Sequence record: MH791411.1
Length of the DNA: 64,000 bases
DNA from: Escherichia phage Ecwhy_1
Direction: 5' to 3' (one strand)
Part shown: positions 42,914 through 50,900 of the stretch, piece by piece
How positions within the stretch are numbered: the first letter of the stretch is position 1
How the letters are laid out: each line of letters begins with the position of its first letter
Notes under the pieces: model-generated
The model's database searches: none
Told to the model about the DNA's origin: nothing
The model's input: only the letters and a program-made list of their open reading frames with translations
Position numbers and translations under genes: made by a program

Positions 42914-42980
42914 TTCGTTATCCTCATCAATTGATGAAATAATTATAGCAAAAAGGGCTGACCTAAGTCAACCCTTTTGT
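42914..42980 (-). promoter_or_regulatory. class-B cassette: terminator hairpin overlapping promoter
   Basis: GGGTTGAC-loop-GTCAGCCC hairpin + T-run; TTGACT (in stem) ~N18 TATAAT; GAGGA SD. Confidence 0.6.
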
Positions 42981-44553: not shown

Positions 44554-44673
44554 GTATTGCCTCTTGAGATGATGAAATAATTATAGCAAAAAGGGCTGAC
44601 CTAAGTCAACCCTGTTTTAAAGTTTTTTTAATATGTTGATAACGACGGTATGTATTCACCATCTGTCATCATT
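44554..44673 (-). promoter_or_regulatory. class-B cassette
   Basis: same ~45 bp as 42925-42975. Confidence 0.6.
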
Positions 44674-45609: not shown

Positions 45610-45804
45610 CTAATCCTCACTGAAAACAACAATAAGGAATGACACGAACAATGCCGCATAACAAGGAGCTATCTTCATGTACCACGGGACTTCATAATAC
45701 CATGTACCCAATTCATCCCACGAAAAGAGTATACTCACACCGAAGCCGATTAGCGATAGTACAATAAAAGAAATCCAGAAACGCTTTGAATATACTAATA
45801 ACAT
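45610..45804 (-). CDS. small membrane peptide (64 aa)
   Basis: two hydrophobic segments. Confidence 0.5.
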   Translation of the reverse strand: MLLVYSKRFWISFIVLSLIGFGVSILFSWDELGTWYYEVPWYMKIAPCYAALFVSFLIVVFSED

Positions 45805-45842
45805 GTTATGTTCCTTTGTGTGACCGAAGTTAACCCTTACCT

Positions 45843-46358
45843 TTAATAATTATTCATTTCATCTTTGATTTGTTCTTCAATTTCGTCGAACATATCAGTA
45901 CTAGATTCTATATTACTACTTACGTCCTGCATATCTTTAACGTACTGTGGGCGTTCAACGTCAGTAAATTTATACCACATAGGCTTCATATGGAGCTTCT
46001 CAATCAAACGCTCACGAGACATTTTAATCTCTGACTCCGATGGTACGTAGTCATTACAAAACTCAGCAGGGAAGCCGCTAATGTCGTTTACTTCAGTGTT
46101 TTGAATCTTCATCCCACGACGCAAACATTCGTTAACAATATCAATATGACGCTTCTGTAAGTACAATAACTTGTTGTAGAAGAATGTTACATGACCTGAA
46201 CCTAACAGGTAAGTACTGTTAATTTTGAAATCACGGACTCGCTTACGTGCTTGAACATGTTTTTGTACAGCACCAAACACACGTGGGAGTTCACGATATT
46301 CAGCCATCAGATGTTGGTCAGCAAGTTCTTTAACGTGTACTAAGTTAATGCGTGTCAT
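45843..46358 (-). CDS. denV: endonuclease V (pyrimidine-dimer DNA glycosylase), T4 DenV homolog
   Basis: [42 protein letters not shown] recalled T4 DenV signature; extra ~33-aa acidic C-terminus. Confidence 0.85.
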
Positions 46359-46430
46359 GTATTCATCCTCTCGTTTCGATGAAATGATTATAGCAAAAAG
46401 GGCTGACCGAAGTCAACCCGTTTTGAAAGG
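46359..46430 (-). promoter_or_regulatory. class-B cassette
   Basis: GGGTTGACTTCGGTCAGCCC hairpin + T-run + TATAAT. Confidence 0.6.
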
Positions 46431-46700
46431 ATTTTTTAATGGTTTTCGTACTGTATGTATTTTGCTTTGTAGTTCTTCTTCCCACAAAACATTTATATTA
46501 TAAACTAAATCATTGTAGTCACTGTTCACAAAGATAAAATCATACTTCTCATTAAAAGTATGAGAAATCAATTGCATTTTCATAAGTATTATTGAACTTT
46601 TAAATTTATATGTTTCTTTTTCTTCTCCAGTTTTTGAACTTTGTATATTTTTTATAAATTCCATGAATTCATCATTGGTCATTGTTTCAGCATCCAACAA
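46413..46700 (-). CDS. hypothetical protein (95 aa)
   Basis: ORF track; 3-prime end runs into cassette hairpin. Confidence 0.5.
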   Translation of the reverse strand: MLDAETMTNDEFMEFIKNIQSSKTGEEKETYKFKSSIILMKMQLISHTFNEKYDFIFVNSDYNDLVYNINVLWEEELQSKIHTVRKPLKNPFKTG

Positions 46701-46977
46701 TACCCAACTTCACAATCTCATACCCATCCAAATATCCATATGAACACTCAGGCGTTTCATAAGATGAACCATCATGGATGCCCTGGCATTGACTTTTGGA
46801 ATTCTCAAGCAATCGTTGCAGTACTGATACGTCATCAAGAACGTAATACAAGTTAGCATATAGGTCCGTTACAATACAGTACTCCAACATGTCAAATGTA
46901 TCAATCGAAATTTCAACCTTAGCAAATTGTTTCTTTTCTTTATTATACAGTGCGTACATATTAATCTCCATAATCAA
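46687..46977 (-). CDS. hypothetical protein (96 aa)
   Basis: ORF track. Confidence 0.5.
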   Translation of the reverse strand: MIMEINMYALYNKEKKQFAKVEISIDTFDMLEYCIVTDLYANLYYVLDDVSVLQRLLENSKSQCQGIHDGSSYETPECSYGYLDGYEIVKLGIVGC

Positions 46978-47332
46978 GTTTAACTAACTTACCACCCAGA
47001 TACCCAAAGTTTTCTGGCTTCGCATCTGAATAGAAGAAGTCAGTACTCAACTCTGAATCCAATGCTAAAGCACACAACTCCACCCAAAATAAACCCCTAT
47101 GTTGTACTGGCTTACAACGTTTCTGTACAGTTACTAGTCCAGTACATGATGACCACAACGTAGGGCAGATACCACTATCACTACGCTTGGAGTACTGCAT
47201 CCAAGAACGTTCATTGAGGTTAGCTATCATCCCTGTTAAGAATAGCTTCCAACTTTTAAAGGTTGGAATCTTGATAGCATATTCCCCAATGAGTATGACA
47301 GTTCGTGTTGCACCTTTCAAATCTATATTCAT
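46961..47332 (-). CDS. hypothetical protein with kinase-like catalytic motifs (123 aa)
   Basis: DAKPENFGY..KLVKLDYGD resembles kinase catalytic loop + DFG; too short for full kinase. Confidence 0.45.
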   Translation of the reverse strand: MNIDLKGATRTVILIGEYAIKIPTFKSWKLFLTGMIANLNERSWMQYSKRSDSGICPTLWSSCTGLVTVQKRCKPVQHRGLFWVELCALALDSELSTDFFYSDAKPENFGYLGGKLVKLDYGD

Positions 47333-48440: not shown

Positions 48441-48821
48441 TCAAAATAAATTCATTTCATGTGCGTATTGTGGTTCAAGATGCGATAAGTTTTTGAAGCT
48501 TTCTTTCAACTCAGCATCATCTACATACACCGTGCCTGGTACATTCCCCATAGTGAAACCTACCCACACAGTCATGTCACCAGTCCCTAAGCGTGGCATT
48601 GATAGCGAACCATCAGGTGAAACATCAAACGCTACACTGAAGTCATCAGTAACAACGTCAGAACCATTTTCGAGAATAATACATCCACTATCTTTAAGCT
48701 TCTGAATGTGGATAGCAGCCTCTACAGCACGTTTGAAGTTATAGTAAGACTCTTTATCCTCAAACATTGATTGTTTAATCAGACGCTTGTTTAGCTCGGT
48801 TACTTTGTGCATTTGACGCAT
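48441..48821 (-). CDS. hypothetical protein (126 aa)
   Basis: ORF track. Confidence 0.55.
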   Translation of the reverse strand: MRQMHKVTELNKRLIKQSMFEDKESYYNFKRAVEAAIHIQKLKDSGCIILENGSDVVTDDFSVAFDVSPDGSLSMPRLGTGDMTVWVGFTMGNVPGTVYVDDAELKESFKNLSHLEPQYAHEMNLF

Positions 48822-50834: not shown

Positions 50835-50900
50835 GTTTGCCTCCAGTAGTTGATGAAATGATTATAGCAAAAAGGGCCGACCGAAGTCAACCCTTTTCTT
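50835..50900 (-). promoter_or_regulatory. class-B cassette
   Basis: GGGTTGACTTCGGTCGGCCC hairpin + T-run + TATAAT. Confidence 0.6.

Follow-up and report, generated by a model that had tools for sequence, protein, structure and literature searches.

The denV gene of Escherichia phage Ecwhy_1, as contained in the 64,000-nucleotide stretch of record MH791411.1 that we analysed (hereafter the window), encodes a repair enzyme of the T4 endonuclease V type with an optional C-terminal module: after the DenV core comes a flexible, fast-evolving linker, and after that an acidic amphipathic helix of 17 residues, which is conserved. We consider this a small variation on a well-known enzyme, one that has so far passed without comment and is probably functional. 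The most likely role of the tail, to which we give a probability of roughly 40%, is that of a tethered docking helix that binds a partner protein in trans. T4 endonuclease V is the textbook stand-alone base-excision enzyme and has dermatological and biotechnological uses. No accessory interaction module for it is described in the searchable literature, in which we also found no mention of a C-terminal extension of phage DenV. If the helix recruits one specific partner, which we hold to be doubtful, no docking motif would have been described before it in a family that otherwise acts alone, and phages would toggle the coupling on and off by recombinational exchange of the denV 3′ cassette. The protein itself entered the databases with the 121Q record, and the deposited long forms, 121Q gp217 (AIT14107; 171 amino acids (aa), 94.7% identity including the tail) and XbC2_562, which has the same terminal helix on a longer linker, are of the same type as ours without substantial difference; their annotation goes no further than “endonuclease V” or “pyrimidine dimer ...”.

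The open reading frame (ORF) of denV runs on the minus strand over 45843..46358, from an ATG start to a TAA stop, and encodes 171 aa, which confirms both the frame and the tail sequence given in an earlier note on this DNA. Searches of the window with tblastn and megablast place the host phage in the genus Asteriusvirus, within the 121Q/PBECO4 group of ~350-kb E. coli jumbo phages, and the closest protein match is DenV of phage TH47 (98.8%). The earlier note had described a near position-by-position match to T4 endonuclease V (PF03013; PDB 2END, 1VAS) over some 138 residues. Homology to DenV was borne out, with a gap-free alignment of residues 1–131 of both proteins (2end_A, 138 aa; E = 7.1e-53 by phmmer against all PDB chains), but the match ends at residue 131 and not at 138. 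In line with this, the window protein shows 63.4% identity to T4's own gene by tblastn, scores 55.2 bits against PF03013 (Pyr_excise; gathering cut-off 23) and matches phrog_1183 (“endonuclease V N-glycosylase UV repair enzyme”) at E = 4.5e-58. Across an alignment of 57 homologs, Thr2, Arg3, Arg22, Glu23 and Arg26 are invariant, and the segments M-T-R-I-N-L and E-Y-R-E-L-P-R of the window protein are the same as in T4. In T4 endonuclease V, Thr2 provides the α-amino nucleophile, Glu23 is catalytic, and Arg3, Arg22 and Arg26 form the active-site basic cluster. Structurally, the AlphaFold2 (AF2) model has a mean per-residue confidence (pLDDT) of 90.7, with the core above 90, and Foldseek superposes it on 2end with a target-normalised TM score of 0.94 (root-mean-square deviation 1.2 Å over 133 columns, E = 3e-16), so that the single-domain all-alpha fold of the T4 enzyme is present. 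On sequence and predicted structure alike, the gene product is thus judged to be a bona fide cyclobutane-pyrimidine-dimer DNA glycosylase/apurinic-apyrimidinic (AP) lyase of the T4 endonuclease V type.

The two proteins part at the C-terminus. T4 DenV stops 7 residues after its WYKY segment, and T4-type DenV has 134–139 aa in dozens of genomes; the acidic tail is accordingly absent from the 138-aa T4 enzyme, as had been claimed. Every DenV that we examined from the RaK2-like jumbo phages is longer than that of T4, since ...WYKYYGKAIYA is replaced by ...WYKF-T-D-V-E-x-P-x-Y-Y-x-x-M-[IL], and the members of this group that lack the tail stop at 144–147 aa. The acidic tail is real, but of the ~33 residues first counted as extra the truly additional piece therefore comprises 27 (residues 145–171), namely the linker and the acidic helix. 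It contains 9 Asp/Glu and 1 Lys, for a net charge of −8. The effect on the protein as a whole is considerable, as residues 1–144 carry a charge of +6 with an isoelectric point (pI) of 9.4, much like the T4 enzyme (+5, pI 9.4) with its similar W-Y-K-aromatic segment, whereas the full-length window protein is net acidic (−2, pI 6.3).

Within the tail, linker and helix behave differently. The linker ranges from 0 to 22 aa across lineages, being 4 aa shorter in ph0011 and wholly missing in the 158-aa metagenomic forms P0003 and P0004. In its place, XbC2 and the metagenomic form P0008 have 17–22 residues of unrelated sequence, Gly or Pro among them. Even between the window and 121Q the tail shows three differences, all of them non-synonymous and all located in the linker. 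By comparison, the helix motif [FYL]-x2-[IV]-E-x-Q-I-K-[DE]-E-M-N is kept in Asteriusvirus, XbC2 and P0008, whose cores are 66–72% identical; the counterparts of the terminal helix read DEYEDVERQIKEEMNNY in XbC2 and DPYEDIEQQIKDEMNLE in P0008. The hydrophobic positions F/Y/L157, I/V160, I164, M168 and Y171 form a stripe inside a 120-degree arc of the helical wheel, and the hydrophobic moment of 0.51 exceeds that of shuffled sequences (0.21; p ~0.001), with the same result for the XbC2 helix. Insertions and deletions (ph0011, P0003/P0004) always leave the helix and the reading frame intact. Between lineages, the proportion of synonymous differences (pS) is ~0.5–0.6 in the helix and 0.6–0.76 in the core, a similarity that favours old shared descent over recent transfer. 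The helix would thus fit old common descent under purifying selection, as estimated from about six synonymous sites, and the contrast between a conserved helix and a variable linker points to selection on the former and not on the latter.

AF2 predicts a single helix spanning residues 138–169 in the window protein, projecting from the core with pLDDT values of 72–84. In P0015, an XbC2-like metagenomic form, it predicts a confident helix at 138–154 (pLDDT ~89) and a disordered linker at 155–161 (pLDDT <50); the terminal helix, at 162–177, is predicted with low confidence (pLDDT ~60). The models are therefore suggestive of a tethered helix, which they pack on the core without confidence.

How widely is the tail distributed? 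Comparison with the denV ORFs of 14 related genomes shows the tailed form in the window, TH47, 121Q and ph0011 (167–171 aa), and in the Mimasvirus XbC2 (179 aa). The full 171 aa were matched in 18 phage records, representing 17 Asteriusvirus phages. Metagenomic data add a second 171-aa form (P0002), P0003 and P0004 (158 aa), P0008 (176 aa, 72% identity) and P0015. The tail is thus present in many close relatives (17 phages of the same genus) and in a second genus, and with T4 DenV at 138 aa neither of the two outcomes that the earlier note named as refuting its claim came about; what the earlier note missed is that it is polymorphic, with about half of the close relatives lacking it. The short forms (PBECO4, slurp01, phAPEC6, A4, Turkey3, CMSTMSU, RaK2, K64-1, GAP32, CBB and Kaldavass) belong to the same genus or clade and sit at the same locus, and they share the P-x-Y-Y-x-x-M-[IL] start of the C-terminal helix. 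Their cores are 80–96% identical to that of the window protein within Asteriusvirus and Alcyoneusvirus and 66–70% identical in Mimasvirus. Among 80 IMG/VR loci no further tailed DenV was found, and T4-like and marine DenV are uniformly 134–140 aa long, with rare unrelated extensions. Two longer matches in that set (L026 and L040) were discarded, as the tblastn alignment simply continues beyond the stop codon. Unrelated C-terminal extensions of 10–40 aa were seen in the metagenomic DenV homologs P0012, P0014, P0017, P0026, P0060 and P0105; that of P0017 is basic and amphipathic, and that of P0026 is acidic and aromatic, ending ...NEYYQENHF. On this comparison of sequences, DenV seems as a rule to tolerate additions at its C-terminus.

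Long and short alleles share most of the gene. In ungapped 36-nt bins, window denV is 86–100% identical to the tail-less alleles of PBECO4, A4, Turkey3 and slurp01 up to codon 132, and identity to the same four falls to 50–58% over codons 133–144. For Turkey3 alone, the bins up to codon 132 are 92–100% identical and the proteins agree in 96% of residues 1–139. Multiple alignment reveals that the common sequence runs to ...ACTGAYGTTGA (~codon 135) and is followed by at least four unrelated continuations within the one genus, which puts the breakpoint between long and short alleles at about codons 133–137, near position 45954. Since the DNA beyond ~codon 135 differs, a premature stop in the long allele does not account for the short ones, nor does read-through of a short allele account for the long one. 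These alignments indicate that denV carries alternative 3′ cassettes exchanged by recombination at ~codon 135, and they offer a clear case from jumbo phages of a protein's C-terminus being swapped, much like a cassette, within a coding sequence. They also bear on whether the tail is an artefact, either read-through of a mutated stop or an error of sequencing or assembly, an a priori possibility raised by the earlier note. Given that 18 phage records, sequenced independently, and several metagenome contigs agree in frame and stop, that the DNA of the short alleles differs from ~codon 135 onward, and that the helix is conserved in another genus, we assign this explanation a negligible probability.

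Further rearrangement at the same place is seen in Salmonella phage SD-2_S15 (OR699181.1; L005, 1501-2229), where DenV is annotated as 242 aa. Here an in-frame deletion joins DenV codon ~136 to ~codon 13 of a downstream 119-aa gene, which is seen in PBECO4, and the resulting fusion removes the normal C-terminal helix of DenV; SD-6_S16 looks similar. As a separate observation, DenV of CMSTMSU (MH494197.1, UNVERIFIED_ORG; L013, ~1780-1810) reads GFLRSFADYV, unlike its relatives, and ungapped DNA identity collapses past nt 288, a pattern suggestive of either a sequencing error or a compensated frameshift.

The 3′ end is clearly a hot spot of recombination: one genus has at least four alternatives, and SD-2_S15 a deletion fusion. 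Such an end might produce tails without function, and the tail could accordingly be a neutral passenger, a tolerated extension left behind by recombination and indels. The unrelated extensions of other metagenomic DenV proteins and its absence from about half of the close relatives are consistent with this, and if it were so, our observation would amount to a minor annotation note only. We nevertheless think it unlikely, as a functionless extension would hardly have kept its helix over three lineages at a synonymous divergence of ~0.5–0.6 while the adjoining linker was scrambled, nor is a significantly non-random amphipathic pattern expected of it, or indels that always spare the helix and the reading frame.

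What, then, might the helix do? The earlier note suggested that the tail may mediate an interaction or regulation, for which the evidence is indirect: an amphipathic helix conserved by position behind a linker that varies freely, a ratio of non-synonymous to synonymous differences below 1, and the neutralisation of charge. In the reading that we favour, the module would be one of several 3′ ends exchanged at ~codon 135, and the stripe formed by M156/F157, I160, I164, M168 and Y171, flanked by acidic residues, would bind a partner in trans, by which the glycosylase would be coupled or targeted; as a side effect, the core's charge of +6 would be cancelled and its salt-sensitive, non-specific DNA binding weakened. 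Both the binding and its target are inferred, and three features lead us to favour docking in trans. First, the helix is unchanged where the linker is fully deleted (P0003/P0004), which favours action in trans over action in cis. Second, the near-identical core in tail-plus and tail-minus alleles gives no sign of co-adaptation and points the same way. Third, the helix keeps Lys, Gln and Asn at fixed positions, as would suit a specific interface better than a generic polyanion; conservation, as far as the sequences indicate, is positional (the hydrophobic stripe and particular polar residues) and not compositional, which would support docking in trans. The AF2 models, which leave the helix undocked, may be counted on the same side. 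More tentatively, the helix may serve specifically as a peptide for recruitment, linking DenV to one particular protein of the phage or the host, for instance a component of the replisome or of the recombination or transcription machinery, a possibility that we hold to be doubtful in this particular form.

Several observations weigh against docking in trans. No partner protein for the tail was identified here. The tail is dispensable, as it is absent from at least 13 of ~30 Asteriusvirus genomes, which carry 144–145-aa alleles, and from all five Alcyoneusvirus (Klebsiella) DenV ends inspected, which are short. Tyr171, the last residue of the stripe, is present in Asteriusvirus and XbC2, and P0008 ends N-L-E instead. 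The between-lineage ratio of non-synonymous to synonymous differences (pN/pS), ~0.4 in the helix and 0.2–0.3 in the core, has the direction expected of purifying selection but is an underpowered estimate resting on about six synonymous sites. Nor do the searches lend evidence for a portable motif in other proteins, as they recovered only DenV tails and matches in line with chance: a tblastn search with the tail (35 aa, E up to 10) of 50,697 phage records returned denV tails, plus Microviridae noise at E ≥2; a phmmer search with 32 aa of the tail against 1.84 billion representative proteins gave no credible match; and when IMG/VR, metagenomes and 185,579 genomes were scanned at the DNA level with a degenerate form of E-x-Q-I-K-[DE]-E-M-N, the motif stood in a DenV context only in 121Q and the P0008 contig. 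Finally, the AF2 evidence consists of secondary structure and pLDDT, which leaves room for docking in cis.

Such docking in cis is the subject of a second explanation, the main rival of the first, in which the tail is autoregulatory: the acidic helix would fold as a DNA mimic onto the basic, DNA-binding concave face of its own core, and in doing so would lower affinity for non-target DNA and tune salt-dependent one-dimensional scanning and product release. The scanning of T4 endonuclease V is reportedly electrostatic, as described from the Lloyd laboratory (e.g. by Gruskin and Lloyd in 1988, cited in PMC9600533). The acidic C-terminal tails of HMGB1, T4 gp32, T7 gp2.5 and E. coli SSB fold onto DNA-binding surfaces, and these precedents recommend the idea, as do the complementary charges of core (+6) and tail (−8), the exit of the tail from the core beside the W-Y-K-F segment, and the flexible tether predicted in P0015. 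If the helix docked on the conserved DNA cleft, moreover, the core would have no need to change with the presence of the tail. Yet a pure polyanion predicts that charge is what is kept, and in this family the stripe and the Q-I-K..E-M-N positions are retained while the acidic linker varies or vanishes; AF2 gives no helix docking, with pLDDT ~60 for the helix of P0015 and a straight helix in the window protein; and without a linker, the helix of the 158-aa variant is unlikely to extend to a remote surface. We therefore view regulation in cis, and with it the proposed tuning of scanning and release, as possible but rather unlikely.

The closest functional analogy is to the SSB-Ct, T7 gp2.5 and T4 gp32 A-domain tails, which dock partners and also compete with DNA for their own protein's binding surface. 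DenV shares with them an acidic C-terminal peptide on a flexible tether, attached to a basic DNA-binding carrier; an acidic extreme C-terminus on a disordered linker is indeed what we find (net −8; pLDDT <50 in the P0015 linker). In SSB-type tails the key contact is made by the side chain and carboxylate of an invariant last residue, aromatic or hydrophobic and usually the former; among the DenV tails, Tyr171 is kept in Asteriusvirus and XbC2, and P0008 ends ...E-M-N-L-E. The likeness is one of analogy only, as the carrier is the DenV glycosylase and not an OB-fold single-stranded DNA-binding protein, the tail is a 17-residue amphipathic helix and not a short D-D-D-I-P-F-type tip, there is no sequence similarity, and the terminal aromatic of DenV is not invariant. 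By the same analogy, roles in trans and in cis may not be mutually exclusive, SSB-type tails doing both. To our knowledge, none of the PIP-box, β-clamp, T4 gp45-binding and ssrA/SspB motifs fits Q-I-K-D-E-M-N-N-Y when compared by eye.

A third role can be imagined for an amphipathic helix with 3-4-4-3 hydrophobic spacing that is predicted to project from the core, namely self-association, whereby DenV would dimerise through its C-terminus, for example at closely spaced lesions. At ~4.5 turns, with a net charge of −6 over 17 residues that disfavours homomeric packing, and with neither heptad regularity nor supporting homology, this seems to us very unlikely. Docking in trans remains the reading that we prefer. 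The natural alleles, with and without the tail on a near-identical core, constitute a natural experiment that could show the contribution of charge and tethered peptides to lesion search, or else the way in which excision is linked to later repair steps in a phage.

Some resemblances to the tail in other proteins were considered and set aside. The only match in the tail-only phmmer search, a repetitive lipoprotein of 1252 aa, is spurious and without an aligned stretch. The degenerate scans also matched ~14 unrelated protein families, roughly the number expected from amino-acid composition. One of these is a bacterial protein ending ...GWKIDIKSESQIKEEMN(IQ/VQ), for example ...ESQIKEEMNIQ, in which nine residues match the core of the DenV helix at the same distance from the C-terminus (L117, L119, L120, L122, L131, L134 and L135, comprising Clostridia/Eubacteriales genomes and a metagenome contig). 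From its KH-domain-like sequence, judged by eye, we take the clostridial protein to be NusA. We rejected its end as a homolog of the DenV helix, as the number of families found in the scan is about what composition predicts and the match is probably a coincidence. Among the 591 ORFs of TH47, two end in E-M-N-x-[YF]: DenV (...DEMNNY) and a 126-aa protein of unknown function (phrog_7672), which lies at 48441..48821 on the minus strand of the window, 3 kb upstream of denV, and ends ...EPQYAHEMNLF. The two have no BLASTP similarity, and at a chance expectation of ~0.1 the shared ending is not significant. As to acidic tails in general, TH47 (MT446416.1) encodes three other proteins with strongly acidic C-termini on the minus strand (233063-234181, 46492-47154 and 228981-229409), e.g. 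...LDLDDDDDDDE, so that such tails are not unique to DenV in this phage. One of them has a Walker A motif and is, we presume by eye, RecA/UvsX-like; the other two are of unknown function.

The features of the locus are collected in the table below.

Table 1. Features in and around denV in the window
Feature	Position	Strand	Basis or remark
PeSL-like composite element 5′ of denV	46387..46419	-	Terminator-like hairpin overlapping a sigma-70-type promoter
Shine-Dalgarno-like GAGAGGA	46366..46372	-	7 nt 5′ of ATG; read directly
DenV catalytic core, residues 1-131	45966..46358	-	T4 endonuclease V-type pyrimidine-dimer DNA glycosylase/AP lyase
Residues 132-144, jumbo-phage-specific C-terminal segment in place of T4 YGKAIYA	45927..45965	-	C-terminal alignment
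Linker, residues 145-154, Ser/Thr/Asn/Asp-rich	45897..45926	-	Sequence and length vary between relatives
Terminal acidic amphipathic helix, residues 155-171 (17 residues)	45846..45896	-	Conserved motif, hydrophobic moment, AF2
TAA stop, long allele	45843..45845	-	Sequence
Truncated hairpin copy GGGTTAACTTCGGTCA directly 3′ of denV stop	45821..45836	-	ph0011 alignment
64-aa hydrophobic small ORF 3′ of denV	45610..45804	-	No PHROG match

On both sides the gene is bordered by repeats that resemble PeSL (promoter-early stem-loop) elements, through which T4-type phages reportedly shuffle modules (PMC2839356, PMC4122927). The copy 5′ of denV is the 33-nt GGGTTGACTTCGGTCAGCCCTTTTTGCTATAAT, whose hairpin GGGTTGAC-TTCG-GTCAGCCC has 8 pairs and is followed by TTTTT, and whose promoter, scoring 11/12 in a promoter scan, consists of TTGACT, an 18-nt spacer and a TG-extended TATAAT. 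denV would thus be transcribed early from its own predicted sigma-70 promoter. The 33-mer occurs four times in the window, always on the minus strand (42942-42974, 44580-44612, 46387-46419 and 50861-50893), against none in shuffled sequence, and in relatives the same element is located at variable gene junctions. Like the T4-type PeSL (PMC2839356, PMC4122927), it combines a terminator hairpin with a near-consensus sigma-70 promoter, repeated between small early genes, and junctions of alternative gene content fall inside or beside it. Unlike them, it belongs to a 350-kb Asteriusvirus and not to a ~170-kb T4-like myovirus, it has a hairpin sequence of its own, and the 5′-side breakpoint of denV lies within the coding sequence (~codon 135) and not in the element. 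The element 3′ of denV is complete in ph0011, and 121Q, TH47 and the window diverge within its hairpin (after GGTCA in 121Q and TH47), a junction that suggests insertion or recombination at the element. From this arrangement, denV appears to sit in a hyperplastic, modularly shuffled early region rich in PeSL-like repeats. The small hydrophobic ORF that follows denV is shared by the window and 121Q and is absent from TH47, ph0011 and the short-allele phages.

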